DNA from: an uncultured Acidobacteriaceae bacterium
GTDB taxonomy: Bacteria > Acidobacteriota > Terriglobia > Terriglobales > Acidobacteriaceae
Assembly: GCA_963732305.1 (NCBI GenBank)
Contig: CAVSYW010000002.1
Location: 860,694 to 924,693, forward strand
Length of the DNA: 64,000 bases
Direction of reading: 5' to 3'
Positions 14,809-29,055 of this stretch are shown here, one piece after another; position 1 is the stretch's first letter; every line of letters begins with the position of its first letter. A model generated the notes under the pieces. The model saw only the letters and a program-made list of their open reading frames with translations. It was not told the origin of the DNA and ran no database searches. A program made the position numbers and the translations under genes.

Positions 14809-14962
14809 ATTGTGCGCCGGATGGGTTTAAGTATCTGCAAAAAAGACAGGGATCAGGGAGCGAGGTTCATGGATCAACAAATGAACGGGCTAGGGTGAGG
14901 CAGAGGCTTCGAATTGGATGGTGCAGGGCTTGACTTGTGAAAATATTGCGGCGGTTTCCCCG
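14809..14962. repeat. Copy 1 of a ~155-bp imperfect direct repeat
   Basis: attgtgcgccg...tatctgcaa..aagacag...atgaacggg.tagggtga...ttggatggtgcagggcttgac.tgtgaaaa; recurs 644 bp later. Confidence 0.8.
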
Positions 14963-14992
14963 GTCCCCAAAGGCGAGGGACCGGGGGAACCC
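14958..14992. repeat. REP-like hairpin family A (CCCCGGTCCC-loop-GGGACCGGGG-GCACCC)
   Basis: Perfect 10-bp stem; further copies at 15719, 15799, 15879, 15959, 32113, 33577, 35606, 45872. Confidence 0.8.
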
Positions 14993-15452
14993 GCGCTCAA
15001 GCGTTTAACGGCACTGGAAAGAGAATCGAGCCCTCCGGTGTGCGGAAGGCCCGAAGCGTGGGGTCTGTGCGATCCCCGGCAAGTTAGCAAGTCAGCGAGC
15101 GGACCAGGAGCGCTTTTTTGCAACTGGCTTGTTTTCTGCAAGATGGCAAAAGCGTACTGGGATACTGCCAAAGTACGATGTTTTGAAATTCCTCCCAAGT
15201 CAAACAATCCAAATTGTTTAGGTGGCTTCACAGTTTCTTTGTCGATTTTTGAATTGCAGGGCGCGAGCCGCCCCATCGGGCAAGAATCACCCGCTGGCGG
15301 CCCCGGAGTGCCGGCCGGAAAACCAGACTCCGATTGGCACTCCGGGGTGGGGGGAGGGGTGGGGGAGTTATTAGGTAGTTAACAGACGCCAGTGAGCCGG
15401 AGAAGCGGTGGCGGGAATTGATTGTCGTGGCCTGGGGGCTGCTCATAGAACG

Positions 15453-15606
15453 ATTGTGCGCCGAATACATTTAATTATCTGCAATCAAGACAGAGATCAC
15501 GGATCAGGGGCCAGGGATCGGAAAATGAACGGGTTAGGGTGAATCAGAGACTTCGATTTGGATGGTGCAGGGCTTGACCTGTGAAAACAGGGCGGCGCTT
15601 TCCCCG
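15453..15606. repeat. Copy 2 of the ~155-bp imperfect direct repeat
   Basis: Aligns by eye with 14809-14962. Confidence 0.8.
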
Positions 15607-15718
15607 ATCCGTCCGCCTCGCCACGGCGAGCAGGCGCGGCGGACGAGGAACCGAGGGCACCCTCAACTTGGTGAGATCTTCCCTAAGTTAGGAGCCATCC
15701 GGCCCGTCTCCTCGACCT

Positions 15719-15995
15719 CCCCGGTCCCCAAAGGCAAGGGACCGGGGGCACCCTCATTCGTGCGTGGCGGAGGGACCGAGGGGTGCGGTCTGTGCGATCC
15801 CCGGTCCCCAAAGGCAAGGGACCGGGGGCACCCTCATTCGTGCGTGGCGGAGGGACCGAGGGGTGCGGTCTGTGCGATCCCCGGTCCCCAAGTGCAAGGG
15901 ACCGGGGGCACCCTCATTCGTGCGTGGCGGAGGGACCGAGGGGTGCGGTCTGTGCGATCCCCGGTCCCCAAGTGCAAGGGACCGGGGGCACCCTC
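15719..15995. repeat. 80-bp tandem repeat (about 3.5 units), each carrying a family A hairpin
   Basis: ccggtcccca recurs at 15721, 15801, 15881, 15961; units identical except in the loop (aaggca to agtgca). Confidence 0.95.
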
Positions 15996-16094
15996 GTACA
16001 TGTCTGGCGGCTTAGTTCACGGGGGCACCCTCGTACATGTCTGGTGGCTTAGTTCACGGGGGCACCCTCGTTCATGTCTGGCGGCCTAGTTCGC
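15984..16094. repeat. 37-bp tandem repeat (3 units) running into the stop codon of the adjacent gene
   Basis: gggggcaccctcgtacatgtctggcggcttagttcac at 15984, 16021, 16058. Confidence 0.9.
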
Positions 16095-19000
16095 CGTCAC
16101 CGTGAAGGTGGTGGAGGCCGTGGGGCTGACCACGGGGTTGCTGGTTGGGGTCACTGTAAAGGTGTAGGTGCCCGCTGTTGTAGGAACATAGTTCACGGTA
16201 ACCGAAGCGGATTGCCCCGAGGAGGGGTTGTAGGCGGTGCTGCCCTGATAGGCGGCCGTGAGGATCACGCTGGTGCCGCCTGCGAAAGTGCTGGCGGGAA
16301 TCGTAAGGGTGACGCTTCCGTTGGTGAGCGTACTATTCAGCCCGGCTTCGGCTCCTCCGGAGAGAGTGACGCCTCCGGTGGCTGTGCCCGCGGAGCCGGT
16401 GACCGTAACAGTGACCATGAGCGGAGCATTGGCTTCAATCGTGTTCGATGCGGGCGTGACGGTGACGGTGGGAGTTGGCAGTGTGGGTGCGGTTGTCCCT
16501 CCTCCTCCTCCGCTGCTGCCTCCGCTGCAGCCTGCGAAGGTGAGTGTTAGAGAGACGATGAGTAGAAGCACGCTCATCAAATTTCTCCACTTGCGTGCGC
16601 CTCCGGGGATTACAAGGAGGAGGAGCGCGGCGAGTGCAGCGCTGCCGACAGCTCCGGACAACTTAGTTCCCCTGGAAAGAGGTGCGTGGGGAGTCGCGGG
16701 CGCGGAGAGCTTCGTCAACTGCGTGGCCTTGGCGCTTGGGCCGGTTACACCGGGGCCGATATTGGGCCGGCGGAGCTCGGACACGGTTGTCAATGAGGTT
16801 GTGTGGATGGCAAAGGTGACGGGCGACCCGGTGGGCGCGCCATTGGCGAACGTTACCGTTCCGTTGCCTGAGAGCGTGCAGGTCGGATTGGCCGGATTTG
16901 AAGCGCTCGCCCCGTTAGAGTATGCGGTGAGCACGCAGGACGCGGATGTGAAGGTCACAGTGCCGGTGTAATTACTGGTTGAAGAGACTGCAACCGATGC
17001 CGTGGCCGCCGTTCCGGGAGTGACCGTAGACGACGGGCCCGTACCGGTGAGCGAAAAGACCGACTGCGCAACGGCCAGTTTTGCTGTGGCCGACACTTGG
17101 GCGTAGTTCGTGTCTCCAAGGTAGCTGGCGGTAATGGGATCGCCCGACGGGAGGCTTGGGACTGGCGACAGCGTGTTTGCGGGGATGGTGAACGTGGCAA
17201 CTCCGCTGGAATTAAGGGCCGCACTCGCCGGCGCCGCAGCCGTGAAGTAGCCGCTGCCATAAAGGGTCACGGTTCCAGAGGGGACTGCGGCGCCCGTGCA
17301 GCTCCCGGTGGGGTTCGGTGGGGTGTTGCAGGCCAGGCTCACTGTGACCAGCAGCGGGGAGCCTGAATTCACGGTAGAGGTGGCCGGTGTGACGGTTATT
17401 GTGGTAGCGAGCACCTGGAAGAACTTGACAGTAACGGAAGTGGTGGTGCTTCCGGGGTTGTAGTTGGAGTCGCCGCTGTACTGGACGTTGAGCGCGTCGA
17501 TCTGGTTGGGCGTTCCTCCGGGGAGCGAGTTGGGCGTGATGATCACTGAATATTGCCCGCTGCTGTTGAGCTGGGCCAACCGCCGAGGTGTAAGAGGTTC
17601 CGTAGGAGACGGTCACCGTCCCGGTTGGTATTGCGCCCGTGCCCGTCACGGTTCCCGTGATGACGACTTGCTGGTTGGATTGAATGGAGGACGGCGTGGG
17701 TGCGGCCGACACTGAGGGGGTGAGTTTGTTTACCGTGACGCCGGCGGTTTGGCTGTTGGGCGCGTAGTTGGCGTCTCCGGAGTAGTTCACGGTCAGGGTG
17801 TCGGCTCCCCCGGCGAGGGTGCCGGCGGGGATGACAAAAGTGTAGGAGCTGGTGGTATTGGCCCCGCCGCTGACGAGCGCTTCCGTCGAGGAGGTGTAGC
17901 CGCCGCCGGAGAGAGTTACCGACCCGGAGGGCGTCGTTTTGCCGGAGGGACTGCTGCCTACAGTGACCGTGACGTTAAGGCTTGCGCCCAAAGAAACAGG
18001 GTTGGGAGCCGGCGTCACGGTTATGGTGGTTGCGCCTGATCCGATGATGGAGACCCAATTGTTGACCACGTTGGTTACGTTCAGCGAACCCAGGCCAGTA
18101 GCAAGGTCGTAGCCGGCGGTCGCGGAATAGCCGTTGAGGATGCCAAGGCCTTCGTCGGAGTCGGCGTAGCCCAAGGTGCTGTAGGACGCGGTGCAGTTGG
18201 GAGAATCGACGCCATTGTCGTAGATATCTTCGTCGCAGGGCATGGCGCTGGTACCCGAATCGATGTCGTTGAACATACAAGTGGTGCTGCCGGCCTTGAC
18301 GGTCTCAGCGCTGCAGGCGTTGTAGCCACTTAAGCTCTGCTTCGCCGCCAGTGTGTAAAGCTCGGGGTTTGCGAAGCCTTGTGTGACCCCCGTCTTCTGA
18401 TTGATGAGCGCCATGACACCCGCCATTGCCGGGGTTGCGACCGAAGTTCCACCCACTTCCTGGTAGAAGGACTCTTTATAGGTGGAGTATGTGCATGGGG
18501 CGTTGCCGCCGTCTGCCTGGGAGACGCAGATGAGGTAGGCGCTCGATGATGTGTATCCGTCGGAGGCGAAGAAGCTGACGTCGGGCAGATCGCGCACGCC
18601 GTCGCTGGGAATGTTGGTGATGCCGGTTGTGCAGTTTGCTGGATTTCCGGGGGTAACGCAGGTTTGTTGCCAGCCCGGCTTGGGCCAGCCGTTGTTGACG
18701 AGATTGAGTGAGGCCTGCGGAGCGTTCGTATCGGGATTCGTGGTGGCGCCGGTGCTGGTGGATCCGGCGGTGCAGCCGGAGAATGCGCCGGTCTCATCGT
18801 TTATCACTGCGTTGCCCACTATGCAGTTGCTGGCTCCGCCGCTTCCGCCTACGGTTTCAAGAAGATAAGTGATGTAGGGGTAGGTGACACCAAGGCCCTC
18901 GTACCCGTCATAGTAGGTGAAATCGTAATCAAGAAGGAAGTTGCAGGACTGTTCGGTGTTTGCAATCCCGTTCGATCCGGACGATGGGATGCCGTAGATG

Positions 19001-20750
19001 AAATTCGCTGCATCCTGCACCCACTGCAGCGTGAGCGGATTGGTGCAGGACTCATTCCATGGGGTCTCGGGTACGTAGCCCAGTGCGGATGTGACTGCCG
19101 TGGTCGATCCTGGGCTTTGAATTGGAATGCTGCTCCAATAGGGCGCGGCCGTGCACTCTGTGTTGGCTGAGCCGTTGGCGGTGTCCGGGTTGCACCAGTT
19201 GAAGTCCGTGCCACCTACCGCGGTGTTCCAGGGAGTGGAGGCAAGCCCGCTGACGGTGAGCCCGGACTCTGCGACGAAGTTGCCGTCATCGCAGGAAGCT
19301 GAGCCGGAGTCGCCGGCAGCGACAAATACGGAGATTCCTTCGGCTGCAGCCTGTTGCCAGAGATTCGTAGTACTGGACGTTGCCCGCGGTGCCGTTGCCG
19401 AGTTCGCACTCGCCATAACTGACGTTCATGATGCGGGCGCCGTTGAGCGGAGAGGCCGCGTTGGCGACGTTGTTGACGATGTAGCTTTCAGAATCGTAGA
19501 GGTTGTCGTCGGTGACCGATGCGGGGTAGGAGGAAACCAGGATAATCTGCGCGTTTTTGGCGATCGACGCCGACCATTCGACGTCGAGCGAGTTTTCAGT
19601 AAGATCGTCGATGCCGCATGGGTTGTCTTCATAGGGAACCGTGCCGGTGGTGTCAGTGCAAACGGTGAGGGGCTCGCTGTTTCCGGAGAGGCGAATGGGC
19701 GTGTTGGCCGCATTGCCGGTTGGCAGGCCGAAGTAGTTACGGAAGGTGTAGACGTCGTTGTTGTATGGGGGGTTGGTGACGTTGCCATTAAAACAAGCGG
19801 TTACCGTCTGGCCGACACAGATGTCGCTGGTTCCGGCAATGGCAATCGTCTGTCCCGTGCCATCGATCACCCCGGCAGACGTGGTTCCGTTCCAGAGGGG
19901 AAGAACGTTGTAGATGGTGGCGAAGTCCCACGGGTCCACATCCTCGACCTGGTAGGCGCTGTTACCGCCGATGCTGATGCCGAACTGCGGGCTTGTCTTT
20001 GCGGGCTTGGTCACGGCGAGCGACCTGTTTGTGGGGGTCGCTGAGGCTGAGGTGGAGGGCGAGACAGGGGAGCTCGTGATCCGCATCCATTTGCCGGACG
20101 ACGCGTCACGTTGGACTGTTTGGCCCATGTGGTGCTCGGGCCGCGGGAAGAAATTGTGCAGAGCTTTGACGCCGACGACGACGGTAGAGAGAGCGGCGGG
20201 GATCTGCGGGTCGCTCATGTTGCCGATGTGCGCCTCGCCCTTGACCGTGAGGTTATGAATCTCAGTGTGGAAGGCGCTCTGGACCTGGCCTGCCGTTGCC
20301 GCCGAAGCGGATGGACATGTGGTCTTTGGTGACCTGGGAGACGGCGAATCCGTGGCCGGTGAGCCAGTTGGTGATGGTCTGGATGTCGGTCTGTGAGGGT
20401 CCGAACTGGTCGCCGATCTGATCGGGCGTGAGCCACCGATGGTAGTTGGGCGAGTTCTGGTCGTATTCGCCGGCGACGTAGGCATCGAAGGCGGCCTGCT
20501 GCGCCGGATCGCGGCTGAGGACCAGGATGAGATCGGTCATGGGCAGGCTGTCGGACACCTTGCCCATGTCGTGCCTGGCATTGGCGAAGGGATGGGTGTT
20601 GCCCTTGAGCGTGACCAACTGGGACTCGTCAATGCGATTGACAATGCGGACGGTGGGCGCGACTCTTTGCCCCTGGGCGGCGGGTAATAAGAGGACACTG
20701 GGCGATATGCACAGGGCGACGAACAGGGGGAGCGAACGCAGGTTGATCAT
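16086..20750 (-). pseudogene. S53 (sedolisin) peptidase with pro-domain and Ig-like repeats, split by three +1 frameshifts (~1553 aa if repaired; may be sequencing error)
   Basis: Signal peptide MINLRSLP, pro-domain, ENSLDVEW, AAGDSG, GGTSVATP, GYDLATGLGS; shifts near 20297, 19365, 17579 identified by comparison with the intact paralog. Confidence 0.88.
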
Positions 20751-21290: not shown

Positions 21291-24200
21291 CTAGTTCACC
21301 GTGACGCTGAAGGTCGCGGTGACCGTGGGGGTGACGGACGGGTTGGCGGTCGAGGTCACGGTGAATACGTAGGTTCCGGCTGTGGTGCCAGAATCGGTGT
21401 AGCCTCCGCCTCCGCCTCCGCCTCCGCCGCTGCCGCCACAGCTTGCCAGGCCGCCGATGGCGATCATGACGACAAGAAGTGAGAGCATAGAGCGCCAGGA
21501 CCGGCGGCGGGCCGGGATGCCGAAGAAGACGAGCAGGGCGAGGATTGCGCCGGAGCCCGCGCCCAGCCATTCGCGGCCATTGCCGCCCGGCAGATTCGGA
21601 CGTCGATTCTGCGCCACGGTATGTGTCACGGTGGTGCCGACGGTAAAGGTGACGGTGCAACTCGATCCGCAGGTCGCGAAATTAATCTGGCCGTTGTTGC
21701 TGCCTGTGCAAGTGGGCGTGTCGTCAGGGTACGAGCTGGACGGGTCGCCGGAGGCCTCAGCACACGAGAGAGTGACGGCACCGGTGTAGCCGGCGACGGC
21801 CGTTCCGGTGACGACAACCGTTGCCGAACTTCCGGGCGCGACGCTGGAGGGGCTGGCCGTACCTGCTGCAAGGGTGAAGGTGGAAGTGACGGTGACCGAG
21901 CCGGTATTTTGCCCCGACGTGTAGTTGGTGTCGCCACCGTAGTTCGCAGTCAGCGTGACACTGCCAGTGCTGAGCGCGTTGGCGGGGATGGTGAAGACGC
22001 AGGCAGTGTTGCTGGCGCAGGGGCTGGTCCCGATGGTCTCTAATGTGGCCGTGTAGCTGCCGCTGGAAGCGCTGAGGGTGATGGTACCTGTGGGCGTAGA
22101 GCCGCCGCCGGTCACCGACACGGTCACATTCAGGCTGGCATTGGCGTTGACCGAGGACGAAGCCGGCGTGACAGTGATGGTGGGAGTGAGCGGAGCTGGG
22201 GTGACGGTGACTGAGCCGGTGTTTTGCGCCAACGTGTAGTTGGTGTCACCACTGTATTTCGCAGTCAGCGTCACACTTCCAGTGCTGAGCGCGTTGGCGG
22301 GGATGGTGAAGACGCAAGCAGTGTTGCTGGTGCACGGGCTGGTCCCAATGGTCTCTAATGTGGCTGTGTAAGTGCCGCTGGAAGCGCTGAGGGTGATGGT
22401 GCCTGTGGGCGTAGAGCCGCCGCCGGTCACCGACACGGTGACATTCAGGCTGGTGTTGGCGACGATGGAGGACGAAGCCGGCATGACGGTGATTGTGGGC
22501 GGAGCCGCTGTGACGGTGACCGAGCCGGTACTTTGCGCCAACGTGTAGTTGGTGTCACCACTGTATTTCGCAGTCAGCGTCACACTTCCAGTGCTGAGCG
22601 CGTTGGCGGGGATGGTGAAGACGCAAGCAGTGTTGCTGGCGCAGGGGCTGGTCCCGATGGTCTCTAATGTGGCCGTGTAAGTGCCGCTGGAAGCGCTGAG
22701 GGTGATGGTGCCTGTGGGCGTAGAGCCGCCGCCGGTCACCGACACGGTGACATTCAGGCTGGTGTTGGCGACGATGGAGGACGAAGCCGGCATGACGGTG
22801 ATTGTGGGCGGAGCCGCTGTGACCGTGACCGAGCCGGTACTTTGCCCCAAAGTGTAGTTGGTGTCACCACTGTATTTCGCGGTCAGCGTGACACTTCCAG
22901 TGCTGAGCGCGTTGGCGGGGATGGTGAAGACGCAAGCGGTGTTGCTGGCGCACGGGCTGGTCCCGATGGTCTCCAATGTGGCTGTGTAGCTGCCGCTGGA
23001 AGCGCTGAGGGTGATAGTGCCTGTGGGTGTTGCGCCGCCGCCGGTCACCGACACGGTGACATTCAGGCTGGTGTTGGCGACGATGGAGGACGAAGCCGGC
23101 ATGACGGTGATTGTGGGCGGAGCCGCTGTGACGGTGACCGAGCCGGTACTTTGCGCCAACGTGTAGTTGGTGTCACCACTGTATTTCGCAGTCAGCGTGA
23201 CACTGCCAGTGCTGAGCGCGTTGGCGGGGATGGTGAAGACGCAAGCGGTGTTGCTGGCGCACGGGCTGGTCCCAATGGTTTCCAGTGTGGCCGTGTAGCT
23301 GCCGCTGGAAGCGCTGAGGGTGATAGTGCCTGTGGGTGTTGCGCCGCCGCCGGTCACCGACACGGTGACATTGAGGCTGGTGTTGGCGACGATGGAGGAC
23401 GAAGCCGGCATGACGGCGATGGTGGGCGGAGCCGCTGTGACCGTGACCGAGCCGGTGTTTTGCGCCAAAGTGTAGTTGGTGTCGCCACTGTATTTCGCAG
23501 TCAGCGTGACACTGCCAGTGCTGAGCGCGTTGGCGGGGATGGTGAAGACGCAAGCGGTGTTGCTGGCGCACGGGCTGGTCCCAATGGTTTCCAATGTGGC
23601 TGTGTAGCTGCCGCTGGAAGCGCTGAGGGTGATAGTGCCTGTGGGTGTTGCGCCGCCGCCGGTCACCGACACGGTGACATTCAGGCTGGTGTTGGCGACG
23701 ATGGAGGACGAAGCCGGCATGACGGTGATTGTGGGCGGAGCCGCTGTGACGGTGACCGAGCCGGTACTTTGCGCCAACGTGTAGTTGGTGTCACCACTGT
23801 ATTTCGCAGTCAGCGTGACACTGCCAGTGCTGAGCGCGTTGGCGGGGATGGTGAAGACGCAAGCGGTGTTGCTGGTGCACGGGCTGGTCCCGATGGTTTC
23901 CAGTGTGGCCGTGTAGCTGCCGCTGGAAGCGCTGAGGGTGATAGTGCCTGTGGGTGTTGCGCCGCCGCCGGTCACCGACACGGTGACATTCAGGCTGGTG
24001 TTGGCGACGATGGAGGACGAAGCCGGCATGACGGTGATTGTGGGCGGAGCCGCTGTGACGGTGACCGAGCCGGTACTTTGCGCCAACGTGTAGTTGGTGT
24101 CACCACTGTATTTCGCGGTCAGCGTGACACTTCCAGTGCTGAGCGCGTTGGCGGGGATGGTGAAGACGCAAGCGGTGTTGCTGGTGCACGGACTGGTCCC

Positions 24201-27200
24201 GATGGTTTCCAGTGTGGCCGAGTAGCTGCCGCTGGAAGCGCTGAGGGTGATAGTGCCTGTGGGTGCTGCGCCTGTGCCGGTGACCGACACGGTGACATTC
24301 AGGCTGGTGTTGGCGACGATGGAGGACGAAGCCGGCATGACGGTGACGGTGGGAGTGAGCGGAGCCGCTGTGACCGTGACCGAGCCGGTACTTTGCCCCA
24401 ACGTGTAGTTGGTGTCACCACTGTAGTTCGCAGTCAGTGTCACGCCTCCAACACCCAACGAGTTGGCGGGGATGGTGAAGACGCAAGCGGTGTTGCTGGT
24501 GCACGGGCTGGTCCCAATGGTTTCCAGTGTGGCTGTGTAGCTGCCGCTGGAAGCGGTGAGGGTGATGGTGCCTGTGGGTGCTGCGCCTGTGCCGGTGACC
24601 GACACGGTGACATTCAGGCTGGTGTTGGCGACGATGGAGGATGAAGCCGGCATGACGGTGATTGTGGGCGGAGCCGCTGTGACCGTGACCGAGCCTGTAC
24701 TTTGCGCCAACGCGTAGTTGGTGTCACCACCATATTTCGCAGTCAGCGTCACACTTCCAGTGCCCAACGAGTTGGCCGGGATGGTGAAGACGCAAGCGGT
24801 GTTGCTGGTGCAGGGGGCGATCGCGATGGTTTCCAGTGTGGCCGTGTAGCTGCCGCTGGAAGCGCTCAGGGTGATGTTCCCGGTGGGCGTTGCGCCGCCG
24901 CCGGTGACCGACACGGTGACATTCAGGCTGGTGTTGGCGACGATGGAGGACGAAGCCGGCGTGACGGTGACGGTGGGAGTGAGCGGAGCGGGGGTGACGG
25001 TGACCGAGCCGGTACTTTGCCCCAACGTGTAGTTGGTGTCGCCACCGTAATTCGCAGTCAGCGTCACACTTCCAGTACCTAACGAGTTGGCTGGGATGGT
25101 GAAGACGCAAGCGGTGTTGCTGGTGCAGGGACTGGTCCCGATGGTCTCCAGTGTGGCTGTGTAGCTGCCGCTGGAAGCGCTGAGGGTGATAGTGCCTGTG
25201 GGTGTTGCGCCGGTGCCGGTGACCGATACGGTTACATTCAGACTGGTGTTGGCGACGATGGTGGACGAAGCCGGCATCACGGTGATGGTGGGAGTGGCCG
25301 AGGTGACAGTGACCGAGCCGGAGTTATGCACCGATGCGTAGTTGGTGTCGCCACTGTAGTTCGCAGTCAGTGTCACGCCTCCAACACCCAACGAGTTGGC
25401 GGGGATGGTGAAGACGCAAGCGGTGTTGCTTGTGCAGGGGGCGATCGCGATGGTTTCCGTTGCGGCTGTGTAGCTGCCGCTGGAAGCGCTCAGGGTGATA
25501 GTGCCTGTGGGTGCTGCGCCGGTGCCAGTGACCGATACGGTTACATTCAGACTGTTGTTGGCGGTGATGGTGGACGAAGCCGGCATGACGGTGACGGTGG
25601 GAGTGAGCGGAGCGGGGGAAGTGACAGTGACCGAGTTTTGGCCGGTGGCGAGGGAATAGACGGGGTCGCCGCTGTAGCCGACGGTCAGGGTGCTCACGCC
25701 GACGGAGAAACTGCTGGCGGGAATGAGGAAGGTGTATGCGCCGCTCGAGTCCAGGGTCTGAGCTGCTGTGGGTCCATAGCCTCCACCGAAGAGCGTGACC
25801 GTTCCGGTGGGTGTTTGGCCGCCGGAGACCACGCTGGCGACCGTGACCGTGACGCTCAGACTGTTGTTGGAAGGAATGCTGCTGGGCGTCGGCGTGACTG
25901 TCACGTTTACGGCGGCGCTGCCGTTGGACGGCGTCCAGCCCTCGACAACGTTAAAGATGTTCAACGAGCCAAGGCCGGTGGCAAGGTCGTAGCCCGTGGT
26001 CGCGTTATAACCGGGGAGGATGCCGATGAAGTCTTGCTCCCCGGCGGTCATTTCGTGTGAGGCGCAGTTGGGGGTATTGTTGAGGGCGTCGCAGGGCTGG
26101 TCGGTGTTGGACTGGTCGATGTCGTTAAAGTAGCAACCGGTGCTGGCGGCGGTGACGCTTTCAGCGCTGCACGCCGAGTAGCCGCTGGAGCTCTGCTTGG
26201 CGGCCAGAGAATAGAGCTCGGCGTTGGGGTTGCCTTGCGACGCGCCGGTCTTCTGGTTGATGAGCGCCATGACGCCCGCCATGGCCGGCGTAGCGACCGA
26301 AGTTCCGCCTACTTCCTGTGCAATCGGTTCAACGTTGCTGGAGTAGTTGCACGCCTGAGCAGTGCCATAGGCGGACGCGTCCTGCGAGACGCAGATGAGA
26401 TAGGCGCTGCTGGAAAGGTATCCGTCGGACGCGAAGAAGCTGACGTCGGGCAGATCGCGCACGCCGTCGGTTGGGATGCCGGTGACGCCGGTTTGCCAAC
26501 TTGGTTTGGGCCAGCCGTTGTTGACAAGGTTGACAGAAAGCTGGGATGCGCCGGTGGCGGGATTCGTGGTGGCGCCGGTGGATGTCGCGCCGGTGTTGCA
26601 GGTACCGAGCGTATGGTTGGTGATTGCTGAAGAGGTGGTGTTGGAGACGCATCCGGAGGGACCGCCTCCGCCGCCTACAACTGACAAGAGTTTGACGCCG
26701 TAGGGATAGTAGTAGCTTAAATCTCCTCCGACTTCGAAGATCTCCTGCTGCATGAAGTTGCAGGCCTGTTCAGTGTCGTTGTTCTTGAGGTCGCCGGAAT
26801 TAAACTCGTAGACCTTAAGAGCGATGTCGTTGATCCAGTTGAAGGCGAGGGGATTGGCGCAAGAATCGTTCCAGGGAACCTCGGGCACATAACCGACGGC
26901 GGAGGACTGGTTGGCGGCGTTTGACGTGTTCCAGTAGGGCGTTGCGGTGCAGCCAACAGGCGGTGTGGTGGTGTAAGTGAAGATATCCTGGGGTGGGCAC
27001 CAATTGAAATCGGTGCCGCCTACGGCGGTATTCCAGGGCGTGGAGGCCATGCCGCTTACCGCGAGCCCGTTTTCGGCTCTTCCGGCGTTTGTGTCGCAGC
27101 CTGCGGAGCCGGAATCGCCGGCGGCGACAAAGACCGCGATGCCTTCAGCGGCGGCCGTTTGCCACAGGTCGTAGTACTGCACATTGCCCGCGGTTCCAAG

Positions 27201-28514
27201 GCCCAGCTCGCACTCGCTGTAGCTCACATTCATGATGTGCGCGGTGAGATTGTCGACGATGTAGCTTTCCGAATCGTAGAGGTTGTCGTCGGAGGCAGAT
27301 TGAGGATAGCTGGAGACGAGGACAATCTGAGCGTTCTTGGCGATGGATGCCGCCCACTCAACGTCCAGGGAGTTTTCAAGCAGATCGTTGATGTTGCAAA
27401 GCGCTGTGGCCGAAAGGCTGGTGCAGACGGTTAGAGGTTGGCTGGAGGGGCTGCCGTTGAGCAAGATGGGCGTGTTGTAGGAGCTGTTTGTAGGCAGATT
27501 GAAGAAGGTGCGGAATGTGGCGACGTCGTTATTGCCGTTGGCGTTGACGGCGGTTCCCGATCCGGACGCGCCGGAGCCGTTGGGCTCACCAACGTCGATG
27601 GCGCTGGTTCCGGCGATGGCGATGGTCTGGCCGGCGCCATCGATGCCGGCGCTCCATAGCTTCGTGAGGTTGTAGATGGTGGCGAAGTCCCAGGGTCCGA
27701 CATCCTCAACCTGGTAAGAACCCCCGTTCGATGGGCCGTTGGCGCCTAACTGCGGTGTGGGACGGCGGGAGAGCGTCCGCGTGGGGAAGGGCGGGTCCGC
27801 CAAGGGCGAAGAGCTCGTGTCGCCGGTGGATTCGCCCGAGCCGGAGCGCATCCATTGCCCCTGCGCGTTGAGCTGGACGGTGCTGCCAAGATGGTGGGCA
27901 GGGCGCGGGAAGAAGTTGTGGAGCGACTTGACGCCGACGACGACGGTGGAGAGCGAGGCCGGGATCTGTGGGTCGCTCATGTTGCCGATGTGGGCCTGGC
28001 CCTTGACGACGAGGTTGTGAATCTCGGTGTGGAAGGCGCTCTGGACCTGGCCGGCGGTGCCGCTAAAGCGGATGGACATGCCGTCTTTGGTGACTTGCGC
28101 GACGGTGAAGCCGTGGCCGGTGAGCCAGTTGACGATGGTTTGGATATCGGTTTGCGAGGGTCCGAACTGCTCGCCCACCTGATCGGGCGTGAGCCACTGA
28201 TGGAAGTTGGGCGAGTTTTGGTCGTATTCGCTAGCGACGTAGGCGTCGAAGGCGGCCTGCTGCGCCGAGTCGCGGCTGAGGACCAGGATGAGGTCGGTCA
28301 TGGGCAGGCTGTCAGCCACTTTGCCCTGGTCGTTTTTGGCGTTGGCCGCGGGATGGGTGTTGCCGCCGAGCGTGACTCGGTCTGTCTCGTCGATGCGGGA
28401 GGTGATGCGGACTCTGGGCGCGACGCCCTGCCCCTGAGAAGCGGTGGGGACGAGGCAGACGCCCGGTAATAGGCACAGGGAAACGAAGAGGGGGAGCGAG
28501 CGCAATTTGGTCAT
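21291..28514 (-). CDS. Giant secreted S53 (sedolisin/kumamolisin) peptidase with 13+ Ig-like domains and C-terminal membrane hairpin (~2407 aa)
   Basis: ATG 28514 (MTKLRSLPLF signal), pro-domain, catalytic ENSLD / GDSG / GGTS, Ca-site GYDLATGLGS, Ig repeats ending YSGDTNY. Confidence 0.92.
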   Translation of the reverse strand: MTKLRSLPLFVSLCLLPGVCLVPTASQGQGVAPRVRITSRIDETDRVTLGGNTHPAANAKNDQGKVADSLPMTDLILVLSRDSAQQAAFDAYVASEYDQNSPNFHQWLTPDQVGEQFGPSQTDIQTIVNWLTGHGFTVAQVTKDGMSIRFSGTAGQVQSAFHTEIHNLVVKGQAHIGNMSDPQIPASLSTVVVGVKSLHNFFPRPAHHLGSTVQLNAQGQWMRSGSGESTGDTSSSPLADPPFPTRTLSRRPTPQLGANGPSNGGSYQVEDVGPWDFATIYNLTKLWSAGIDGAGQTIAIAGTSAIDVGEPNGSGASGSGTAVNANGNNDVATFRTFFNLPTNSSYNTPILLNGSPSSQPLTVCTSLSATALCNINDLLENSLDVEWAASIAKNAQIVLVSSYPQSASDDNLYDSESYIVDNLTAHIMNVSYSECELGLGTAGNVQYYDLWQTAAAEGIAVFVAAGDSGSAGCDTNAGRAENGLAVSGMASTPWNTAVGGTDFNWCPPQDIFTYTTTPPVGCTATPYWNTSNAANQSSAVGYVPEVPWNDSCANPLAFNWINDIALKVYEFNSGDLKNNDTEQACNFMQQEIFEVGGDLSYYYPYGVKLLSVVGGGGGPSGCVSNTTSSAITNHTLGTCNTGATSTGATTNPATGASQLSVNLVNNGWPKPSWQTGVTGIPTDGVRDLPDVSFFASDGYLSSSAYLICVSQDASAYGTAQACNYSSNVEPIAQEVGGTSVATPAMAGVMALINQKTGASQGNPNAELYSLAAKQSSSGYSACSAESVTAASTGCYFNDIDQSNTDQPCDALNNTPNCASHEMTAGEQDFIGILPGYNATTGYDLATGLGSLNIFNVVEGWTPSNGSAAVNVTVTPTPSSIPSNNSLSVTVTVASVVSGGQTPTGTVTLFGGGYGPTAAQTLDSSGAYTFLIPASSFSVGVSTLTVGYSGDPVYSLATGQNSVTVTSPAPLTPTVTVMPASSTITANNSLNVTVSVTGTGAAPTGTITLSASSGSYTAATETIAIAPCTSNTACVFTIPANSLGVGGVTLTANYSGDTNYASVHNSGSVTVTSATPTITVMPASSTIVANTSLNVTVSVTGTGATPTGTITLSASSGSYTATLETIGTSPCTSNTACVFTIPANSLGTGSVTLTANYGGDTNYTLGQSTGSVTVTPAPLTPTVTVTPASSSIVANTSLNVTVSVTGGGATPTGNITLSASSGSYTATLETIAIAPCTSNTACVFTIPANSLGTGSVTLTAKYGGDTNYALAQSTGSVTVTAAPPTITVMPASSSIVANTSLNVTVSVTGTGAAPTGTITLTASSGSYTATLETIGTSPCTSNTACVFTIPANSLGVGGVTLTANYSGDTNYTLGQSTGSVTVTAAPLTPTVTVMPASSSIVANTSLNVTVSVTGTGAAPTGTITLSASSGSYSATLETIGTSPCTSNTACVFTIPANALSTGSVTLTAKYSGDTNYTLAQSTGSVTVTAAPPTITVMPASSSIVANTSLNVTVSVTGGGATPTGTITLSASSGSYTATLETIGTSPCTSNTACVFTIPANALSTGSVTLTAKYSGDTNYTLAQSTGSVTVTAAPPTITVMPASSSIVANTSLNVTVSVTGGGATPTGTITLSASSGSYTATLETIGTSPCASNTACVFTIPANALSTGSVTLTAKYSGDTNYTLAQNTGSVTVTAAPPTIAVMPASSSIVANTSLNVTVSVTGGGATPTGTITLSASSGSYTATLETIGTSPCASNTACVFTIPANALSTGSVTLTAKYSGDTNYTLAQSTGSVTVTAAPPTITVMPASSSIVANTSLNVTVSVTGGGATPTGTITLSASSGSYTATLETIGTSPCASNTACVFTIPANALSTGSVTLTAKYSGDTNYTLGQSTGSVTVTAAPPTITVMPASSSIVANTSLNVTVSVTGGGSTPTGTITLSASSGTYTATLETIGTSPCASNTACVFTIPANALSTGSVTLTAKYSGDTNYTLAQSTGSVTVTAAPPTITVMPASSSIVANTSLNVTVSVTGGGSTPTGTITLSASSGTYTATLETIGTSPCTSNTACVFTIPANALSTGSVTLTAKYSGDTNYTLAQNTGSVTVTPAPLTPTITVTPASSSVNANASLNVTVSVTGGGSTPTGTITLSASSGSYTATLETIGTSPCASNTACVFTIPANALSTGSVTLTANYGGDTNYTSGQNTGSVTVTSTFTLAAGTASPSSVAPGSSATVVVTGTAVAGYTGAVTLSCAEASGDPSSSYPDDTPTCTGSNNGQINFATCGSSCTVTFTVGTTVTHTVAQNRRPNLPGGNGREWLGAGSGAILALLVFFGIPARRRSWRSMLSLLVVMIAIGGLASCGGSGGGGGGGGGYTDSGTTAGTYVFTVTSTANPSVTPTVTATFSVTVN
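21895..25610 (-). repeat. Twelve near-identical 309/315-bp coding repeats (103/105-aa Ig-like domains)
   Basis: gacgaagccg at 22471 and 22780 (period 309); unit PPTITVMPASS...PCTSNTACVFTIP...YSGDTNY...SVTVTAA. Confidence 0.95.
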
Positions 28515-28849
28515 AGAGGATGGTCCTGAAACCTTTATTGAGAAAGAACCGAGAAAGCGGAATAGGCTGAGTGTATACGAGAATAACAAGCGCGGGCCGG
28601 TGGATTTGGCGTTGAGTGGACGAGTTGGAGGACCAGATCGTCTTCGAGAACGGGTCGAGGCCGCGAATTCGCGGGTAGCAGTTTGCGTCGGCAAGCGCTG
28701 CCAAGCCGACAGTGGACTGTCCGAATGGCCACGATCCATTTGAAATCGGCCCGACGTCATTATTGTGCCTGAAGAACAAAAACGATCAAAGCCGGCAGAG
28801 TACGGATGAGAGGCCGCTTTTTGAGATGGGGCGGGCAGACTCGGAATAC

Positions 28850-28879: not shown

Positions 28880-29055
28880 AAGACCAGGTTCGAGGACTGA
28901 CCGAGGTAATAGAGGGCGGAGCGCGAGCGCGGGTGCGGGCCCTTGCTCCCTGCTTTTTTCAATAGGCATGAGATTGCAATAGACAATTGATGCGCAAGGG
29001 TTTATGATTCGTTTTCCTGGATGATGGCTTTATCTTTTCATGGATGAGTGGCTGG

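Follow-up and report, generated by a model that had tools for sequence, protein, structure and literature searches.

A lipo-invert C-terminal tail within the last Ig-like domain of two acidobacterial S53 peptidases: a candidate lipid anchor

Introduction

To our knowledge, few ways are known in which diderm bacteria attach a secreted protein to a membrane by its C-terminal end. Here, we describe the C-terminal tails of two paralogous S53 peptidase genes, termed gene 1 and gene 2, which lie on the minus strand of a 64,000-nucleotide stretch of DNA (the window) from an uncultured Acidobacteriaceae bacterium (GenBank assembly GCA_963732305.1, contig CAVSYW010000002.1, positions 860,694 to 924,693). 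Each tail consists of an immunoglobulin (Ig)-like domain that is interrupted by two predicted transmembrane segments (TM1 and TM2), a lipobox cysteine and a glycine-rich linker. The NCBIfam family NF058595 ("invert_tail"), titled lipo-invert putative C-terminal anchoring domain-containing protein, describes this layout.

Other known systems resemble these tails in part. Classical lipoprotein signal peptides, processed by Lgt, LspA and Lnt, have in common with them a basic n-region, an h-region, the invariant cysteine of a lipobox and a glycine-rich tether, and genuine signals of this kind cross-match the family profile. In contrast to the classical signals, the lipo-invert signal is internal, lies close to the C-terminus behind another TM segment and has a longer h-region (18-23 residues), so that nearly all of the protein precedes the cysteine. 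The C-terminal sorting signals of the PEP-CTERM/exosortase, GlyGly-CTERM/rhombosortase, MYXO-CTERM and LPXTG/sortase systems likewise end large secreted proteins with a short TM segment and an Arg/Lys cluster, occur as many paralogues per genome and are lineage-restricted. The lipo-invert tails, however, carry neither their signature motifs nor a match to their models, and the chain continues with a second TM segment, a lipobox and two β-strands. A functional analogy, without homology, exists with the SEA and GAIN domains of eukaryotic mucins and adhesion G protein-coupled receptors, in which a folded β-sheet domain is cut internally and its last strand or strands hold a big outer fragment to a small membrane-tethered one. 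There the cut is autoproteolytic and the tether a TM protein, whereas in the lipo-invert tails LspA would do the cutting and a lipid would serve as the tether. Finally, the C-terminal domain of Type IX secretion in Bacteroidota is also an Ig-like sorting element whose cargo ends on a lipid-bearing anchor. It belongs to another phylum and another machinery, has no TM segments dividing it and is cut off as a whole by PorU.

Membership in the lipo-invert family

The gene 1 tail matches NF058595 with 58.6 bits (cut-off 37, E-value 6.6e-16) over model positions 2-112 of 113. The match stops one residue short of the stop codon, and gene 1 carries a Sec-type signal at its N-terminus. With 29.7 bits, the gene 2 tail falls short of the cut-off, owing to a Big_3_5 domain inserted behind its cysteine. 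Compared by profile match and by family title, which itself says "putative", the gene 1 tail shares the element order and the C-terminal position of the family, from which gene 2 departs by its post-cysteine Big_3_5 domain. On this sequence comparison, the two tails are members of the lipo-invert family of C-terminal anchoring domains. The initial annotation of this DNA, which was made without database searches, knew of no named signal with such a layout; NF058595 corrects this statement. Models of PEP-CTERM, GlyGly-CTERM and other sorting signals did not match the tails in an NCBIfam scan at E-values up to 1, which besides invert_tail returned one noise hit.

Architecture of the two tails

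The tails were translated from window positions 21294-21902 (gene 1) and 16089-17072 (gene 2), both on the minus strand, and span 203 residues at the end of gene 1 and 328 residues at the end of gene 2. Both follow the same order, consisting of Ig strands A to E, a linker, TM1, an Arg-rich loop, TM2 with the lipobox cysteine, a glycine linker and two final strands (Table 1). The initial annotation had read the succession of TM segment, basic loop, TM segment, lipobox, glycine run and strands in both S53 proteins, and translation reproduces it exactly at the same coordinates. It had also placed a whole Ig domain behind the cysteine of gene 2, where Pfam identifies a complete Big_3_5 domain. This domain sits between the cysteine with its glycine linker and the final strands. 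The gene 1 linker between strand E and TM1 has a low model confidence and is probably flexible.

The hairpin divides a single Ig-like domain

The interrupted domain was compared with its uninterrupted relatives. A hidden Markov model (HMM) of 99 positions, built from nine uninterrupted copies, matches 32 of 37 tails as two collinear pieces flanking the hairpin, of which positions 1 to ~73 lie before TM1 and positions ~71-98 past the glycine linker. When the hairpin is deleted in silico from a paralogue of the same genome (C5:181197), the spliced sequence forms one continuous match to Pfam PF19410 (DUF5980) with 29.2 bits, above the cut-off of 27.1. The spliced gene 1 sequence gives no match to PF19410. 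At the level of profiles, a gene 1-type alignment of 117 S53-type tails from which the cassette was removed aligns to the uninterrupted profile at 97.65% (hhalign, E-value 2.6e-12), columns 1-114 pairing with columns 1-98 continuously through the junction. Gene 2, freed of both the cassette and the Big_3_5 domain, aligns over its full length to the spliced gene 1-type profile (99.2%, E-value 1e-19).

Structure prediction is consistent with this arrangement. Modelling of the split domain by AlphaFold had been proposed in the initial annotation, and for the gene 1 tail, based on an alignment of 32 rows, the terminal strands are placed with a predicted local distance difference test score (pLDDT) of 83-90. 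The pre-hairpin strands reach 86-93, the two helices 55-72, and the glycine linker falls below 50. A Foldseek search of the PDB with this model returned no match at E-values up to 0.001, and the fold similarity concerns generic Ig-like sandwiches only. Among these, single β-sandwiches of ~100 residues align over 199 query columns and thereby span both halves of the tail.

The claim that the anchor interrupts the Ig domain, and that the segment behind the cysteine corresponds to strands F and G, is borne out by the agreement of the HMM pieces, the Pfam match after splicing, the hhalign comparison and the Foldseek span. The last Ig-like domain, which is DUF5980-like, carries within its E-F loop a cassette of linker, TM1, Arg-rich loop, TM2 with lipobox cysteine, and glycine tether. 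The two halves together make up one complete domain.

Three points weigh against this assignment and against what is built on it below. The F-G piece of gene 1 on its own scores 2.2 bits against the uninterrupted-domain HMM, which is not significant, and it becomes visible only by profile-profile comparison. The AlphaFold model represents the uncut chain and is read by per-residue confidence. The model of the gene 2 tail is poor (mean pLDDT 63.5), and no conclusion is drawn from it.

Whole extra domains are found behind the cysteine and glycine linker not only in gene 2 but also in P0118, in L050 (genome G218) and in L060/L061 (genome G014), and in each of them the F-G strands still come last. 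P0118 is an intact homologue of gene 2 with an identical layout, while the tails of L050 and L060 are unrelated to it and belong to other families. Such insertions are present in at least three lineages. That strands F and G are kept at the extreme end despite these insertions is hard to explain unless they pair with strands A to E.

A variant tail was seen outside the window, at C5:444659-444961 of the plus strand of the same genome. Its hairpin apparently lies between strands F and G, not between E and F, which leaves one strand behind the cysteine.

Conservation of the cysteine, the lipobox and the basic loop

The cysteine is kept in all 119 database homologues of the gene 1 tail and in every paralogue and relative that was read. 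Loss of this residue among homologues had been named beforehand as an outcome that would speak against the anchor, and every homologue read retains it. All 119 also keep TM1, the basic loop and TM2. Together with the E-value of the NF058595 match, this conservation places the layout beyond chance. Among 16 paralogues only two alignment columns are invariant, the cysteine being one of them. The lipobox pattern [LVIMF][ASTVIG][GAS]C fits ~106 of the 119 homologues, and 40-58 residues follow the cysteine.

Per column, conservation in gene 1-type tails varies strongly along the cassette. The stretch FFGIPARRRSWR, which covers the cytoplasmic end of TM1 and the loop, is the most conserved part of the tail (0.9-0.99 in 117 homologues). 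The interior of TM2 reaches 0.3-0.6 and the final strands 0.7-0.9, and the cysteine and the next two glycines (positions +2 and +3) are conserved at 0.8-0.9 or above. A regular-expression search for the motif P-x-RRR-W was uninformative, as it was swamped by wrong-frame open reading frames (ORFs) in GC-rich DNA.

In both proteins, the lipobox follows a hydrophobic stretch that in turn follows basic residues, ending in LAS-C in gene 1 and in FAG-C in gene 2, as in type II signal peptides (SPII). The position is not that of an SPII signal, which is N-terminal; here the protein has ~2400 residues and the element begins only ~70 from its C-terminus. Genuine N-terminal lipoprotein signals with glycine linkers match NF058595 at model positions ~37-105. 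The earlier proposal that TM2 acts as an internal lipoprotein signal therefore stands as far as the likeness goes, with the lipobox frequency and the partial profile match of true N-terminal signals behind it.

A possible route to lipid anchoring and its alternatives

We postulate the following route. The passenger would be exported by Sec via its N-terminal signal peptide until TM1 halts transfer, leaving the Arg-rich loop in the cytoplasm. TM2 would then re-insert as a lipoprotein signal peptide does and bring the last 40-50 residues out, where strands F and G would complete the Ig fold. Lgt would lipidate the cysteine, LspA would cleave before it, and Lnt would acylate the new N-terminus. 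In the resulting nicked domain, the giant passenger would be held through β-sheet bonds by a peptide of two strands that carries the lipid. As an outcome, the protein would have a C-terminal lipid anchor, and its S53 propeptide at the N-terminus would be free for removal. The TM1-TM2 remnant may then be clipped and the protein transferred by Lol to the outer membrane. Judged from sequence, we regard it as about evenly balanced whether Lgt, LspA and Lnt act on the tail in this way and leave a nicked Ig domain with a lipidated F-G peptide holding the passenger.

The individual steps differ in what they draw on. Two TM segments separated by a positively charged loop bring the chain back to the same side, as the split domain requires. 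Four steps are inferred, namely that the cysteine is lipidated, that the chain is cleaved, that the nicked domain is stable and that the TM1-TM2 remnant is removed. Lipidation is argued chiefly from the invariance of the cysteine, and removal of the remnant is needed because the lipid would otherwise be without effect and the protein would not arrive at the outer membrane. The initial annotation had further suggested that a rhomboid may cut TM1. With a single LspA, a single Lnt, four genes of the Lgt family and three rhomboids, the genome permits such steps and proves none of them. Were the route to operate, Acidobacteriaceae would reuse the ordinary lipoprotein pathway by setting its signal within the final domain and letting strand complementation bridge the cut. 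It would account for the display of dozens of very large enzymes and adhesins by soil acidobacteria, and it would offer a compact lipid-anchoring tag for proteins that need a free N-terminus.

Enzymes dedicated to the tails were also considered. A dedicated LspA was rejected, since the genome has a single LspA. A dedicated Lgt was rejected as well: in 401 genomes of the phylum, the number of Lgt genes does not go along with the family, and only one is present in several of the genomes that are rich in tails. The four Lgt-family genes of the genome are located at C1:825008, C2:1231224-1232937 (a tandem pair) and C5:654964.

Several observations speak against the lipidated, nicked product. After a cut by LspA, the passenger would keep the TM1-TM2 hairpin, so that the lipid would add nothing unless a second cut occurs. 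TM2 measures 18-23 residues from the last basic residue to the cysteine, against a median of 14 in a genome-wide set of N-terminal lipoproteins that is crude and noisy and allows a rough length comparison only. The strongest conservation lies in the TM1 end and the loop rather than in the lipobox context, which hints at another recognition step. A literature search found no paper or experiment on the lipo-invert signal; as far as we found, the family has a curated name and neither a publication nor a test.

The first two of these observations lead to the leading alternative, in which the cassette is a tolerated loop insertion and the chain remains uncut, anchored in the inner membrane by a plain two-helix hairpin, with the cysteine lipidated by Lgt alone or serving another role. 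A TM2 longer than typical lipoprotein h-regions could favour such an uncleaved anchor, AlphaFold predicts both helices as a hairpin, and a second protease becomes unnecessary. This arrangement, however, leaves unexplained why the cysteine is invariant, in a canonical lipobox and with a glycine tether, across more than 150 sequences with a freely varying TM2 interior. It also leaves unexplained the profile-level likeness to true lipoprotein signals. We consider the uncut hairpin somewhat unlikely.

The conservation of the loop bears on another alternative, in which TM1 and the Arg-rich loop form a sortase-like C-terminal sorting signal. A putative dedicated enzyme (rhomboid, CPBP or exosortase-like) would remove the hairpin or transfer the passenger, and processing of TM2 would be coupled to this step or would dispose of the remnant. 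The stretch around the loop is indeed more conserved than TM2. TM1 is short (12-20 residues) and contains Pro and Gly like cleaved sorting signals, three rhomboids are present in the genome, and, like sorting signals, the family occurs in many copies within a restricted lineage. Against this stand the absence of any match of the tails to PEP-CTERM, GlyGly-CTERM or other sorting models, the lack of a partner enzyme gene adjoining the carriers, and an Lgt copy number that is independent of the family. Such a sorting signal appears improbable to us.

A gene fusion or overlapping small gene, with a separate lipoprotein translated from an internal Met before TM2, is barely credible: a Met does stand at the start of TM2 in both window genes (RSML and NLMS) and is ~70% conserved in S53-type tails, but it is missing from most paralogues (for example RRRRWITLAILL), which counts against an internal start, the basic n-region would be lost, all 119 homologues are in frame without a stop, and no stand-alone F-G lipoprotein ORF was found in the genome.

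A predicted barrel gene beside the carriers

Directly downstream of many lipo-invert carriers lies a small gene whose product, 205-225 residues long, has a signal peptide, contains the motif GCGCFNLNGG and ends in VVIHF. The product gives no Pfam match and a weak one to TIGR04565, a model of outer-membrane barrels, and is predicted from these features to be an outer-membrane β-barrel. In the genome of the window the gene follows six of 18 carriers, which accounts for six of its seven copies. Among relatives it follows 13 of 19 tail-bearing loci, 12 of them within the 14 closest (Acidobacteriaceae/Terracidiphilus), at ~1700-2350 in loci L023-L039. In nine further genomes the barrel coordinates abut the tail coordinates, and the pairing spans several genera. 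Of the 34 genomes of the family, 23 have the gene, which is nearly absent from other families. It is located neither beside the S53 genes of the window nor at the two homologous S53 loci. Where the barrel gene adjoins carriers, the outer membrane may be the destination, at least in that subfamily.

A combined reading would join these elements: LspA nicks the Ig domain, the lipidated strands stay locked in it, a second cut frees the hairpin, Lol carries the protein to the outer membrane, and the small barrel takes part in one subfamily. We regard this full sequence as possible, if doubtful. If it holds, it would be a bacterial counterpart of the nicked SEA and GAIN domains and a new route of C-terminal anchoring in diderms. 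Together, the split-domain evidence, the variants with extra domains and the neighbouring barrel gene ease the design of experiments.

Distribution across genomes

The genome of the window contains 22 matches to NF058595, 15 of them above the cut-off. Eighteen tails were read, and the layout is identical in all of them. Their cargo is varied, including S53 peptidases, NHL- or YVTN-like propeller repeats (assigned by eye) and others, and most carry a Sec signal peptide.

A survey of acidobacterial genomes with a profile of the motif, as suggested in the initial annotation, was carried out with NF058595, and 41 of 401 genomes of the phylum have a match above the cut-off. All 34 genomes of the family to which the window belongs are among them, each with between 3 and at least 11 copies (11 being the limit of scoring), as are two from other families of the class. 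Among the few remaining genomes, elsewhere in the phylum, only G383 (L049) and G218 (L050) have a real tail; in the others, the match above the cut-off reflects N-terminal lipoprotein signals or F-G strands only. Weak matches elsewhere are likewise genuine N-terminal lipoprotein signals with glycine linkers, or the last strands of uninterrupted Ig-like domains. Named relatives with tails, whose loci were retrieved with a three-row alignment as query, belong to Acidobacteriaceae, Terracidiphilus and metagenome-assembled genomes (MAGs) of Terriglobales. The lipo-invert tail is a multi-copy signal that is widespread in Acidobacteriaceae and rare elsewhere in the phylum.

Two irregular cases were encountered. 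A 19th tail of the same genome, outside the window (C2:208038-210440, minus strand), loses its frame just past the cysteine, and its F-G strands are legible in another frame. The contig of locus L045, labelled as a Candidatus Adlerbacteria MAG, has a canonical lipo-invert tail and probably is acidobacterial DNA that was mis-binned.

The carrier genes and their surroundings

The ORF of gene 1 is open to position 28880, with a probable start at MTKLRSLPLF (~28529), and encodes a pro-kumamolisin activation domain, the S53 peptidase and the Big_3_5 repeats. Gene 2 is broken at ~20262-20485, 19286-19416 and 17500-17640. None of the breaks lies in a homopolymer run, the pieces are each well conserved, and all breaks are upstream of the tail, which is intact. 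Gene 2 is either a recent pseudogene or the product of an assembly error.

Table 1 Features of the lipo-invert carriers and their tails. Positions refer to the window unless a prefix (C1 to C5) marks another part of the same genome.
Feature	Position	Strand	Description or basis
Gene 1	21291..28529	-	Sec signal peptide, S53 pro-kumamolisin peptidase, 13 Big_3_5 repeats, lipo-invert tail
Gene 1 Ig strands A-E (first part of split domain)	21630..21881	-	hhalign 94.6% to template positions 1-53; AlphaFold pLDDT 86-93
Gene 1 linker VTHTVAQNRRPNLPGGNGRE	21570..21629	-	pLDDT 54-68, low confidence
Gene 1 TM1 WLGAGSGAILALLVFFGIPA	21510..21569	-	AlphaFold helix, tail residues 117-127
Gene 1 basic loop RRRSWR	21492..21509	-	predicted cytoplasmic by positive-inside rule
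Gene 1 TM2 SMLSLLVVMIAIGGLAS / SMLSLLVVMIAIGG, ending in lipobox L-A-S	21441..21491	-	AlphaFold helix, tail residues 136-150
Gene 1 lipobox Cys codon	21438..21440	-	invariant in alignments A1 and A4
Gene 1 Gly-rich tether after Cys	21387..21437	-	pLDDT <50, tail residues 154-166
Gene 1 final strands F and G, TTAGTYVFTVT...TFSVTVN	21294..21386	-	template positions 72-98 of 99 (87.2%, E-value 3.8e-6); AlphaFold strands 176-186 and 194-202
Gene 2	16086..~21053	-	paralogous S53 peptidase; four overlapping frames, three single-base frame breaks
Gene 2 strands A-E	16794..17063	-	spliced gene 2 against gene 1-type spliced profile
Gene 2 hairpin: TM1 GAVGSAALAALLLLVIPGGA, loop RKWR, TM2 NLMSVLLLIVSLTLTFAG	16530..16655	-	translation
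Gene 2 lipobox Cys codon (FAG-C)	16527..16529	-	translation, alignments
Gene 2 extra complete Big_3_5 domain	16191..16469	-	Pfam PF16640, 37.8 bits, cut-off 35.5
Gene 2 final strands F and G	16089..16190	-	alignment and profile comparison
Predicted barrel gene, copies beside carriers	C1:210176-210808, C2:287240-287845, C5:180565-181179, C5:276038-276640, C3:450332-450961, C1:80514-81098		

A conserved partner gene beside S53-type genes was found neither in the window nor in the two homologous loci that were read. Between gene 2 and a sugar operon, two copies of a repeat ORF starting with MVQGLTCEN are present on the plus strand (14918-15382 and 15562-16089), which look like a repeated intergenic element.

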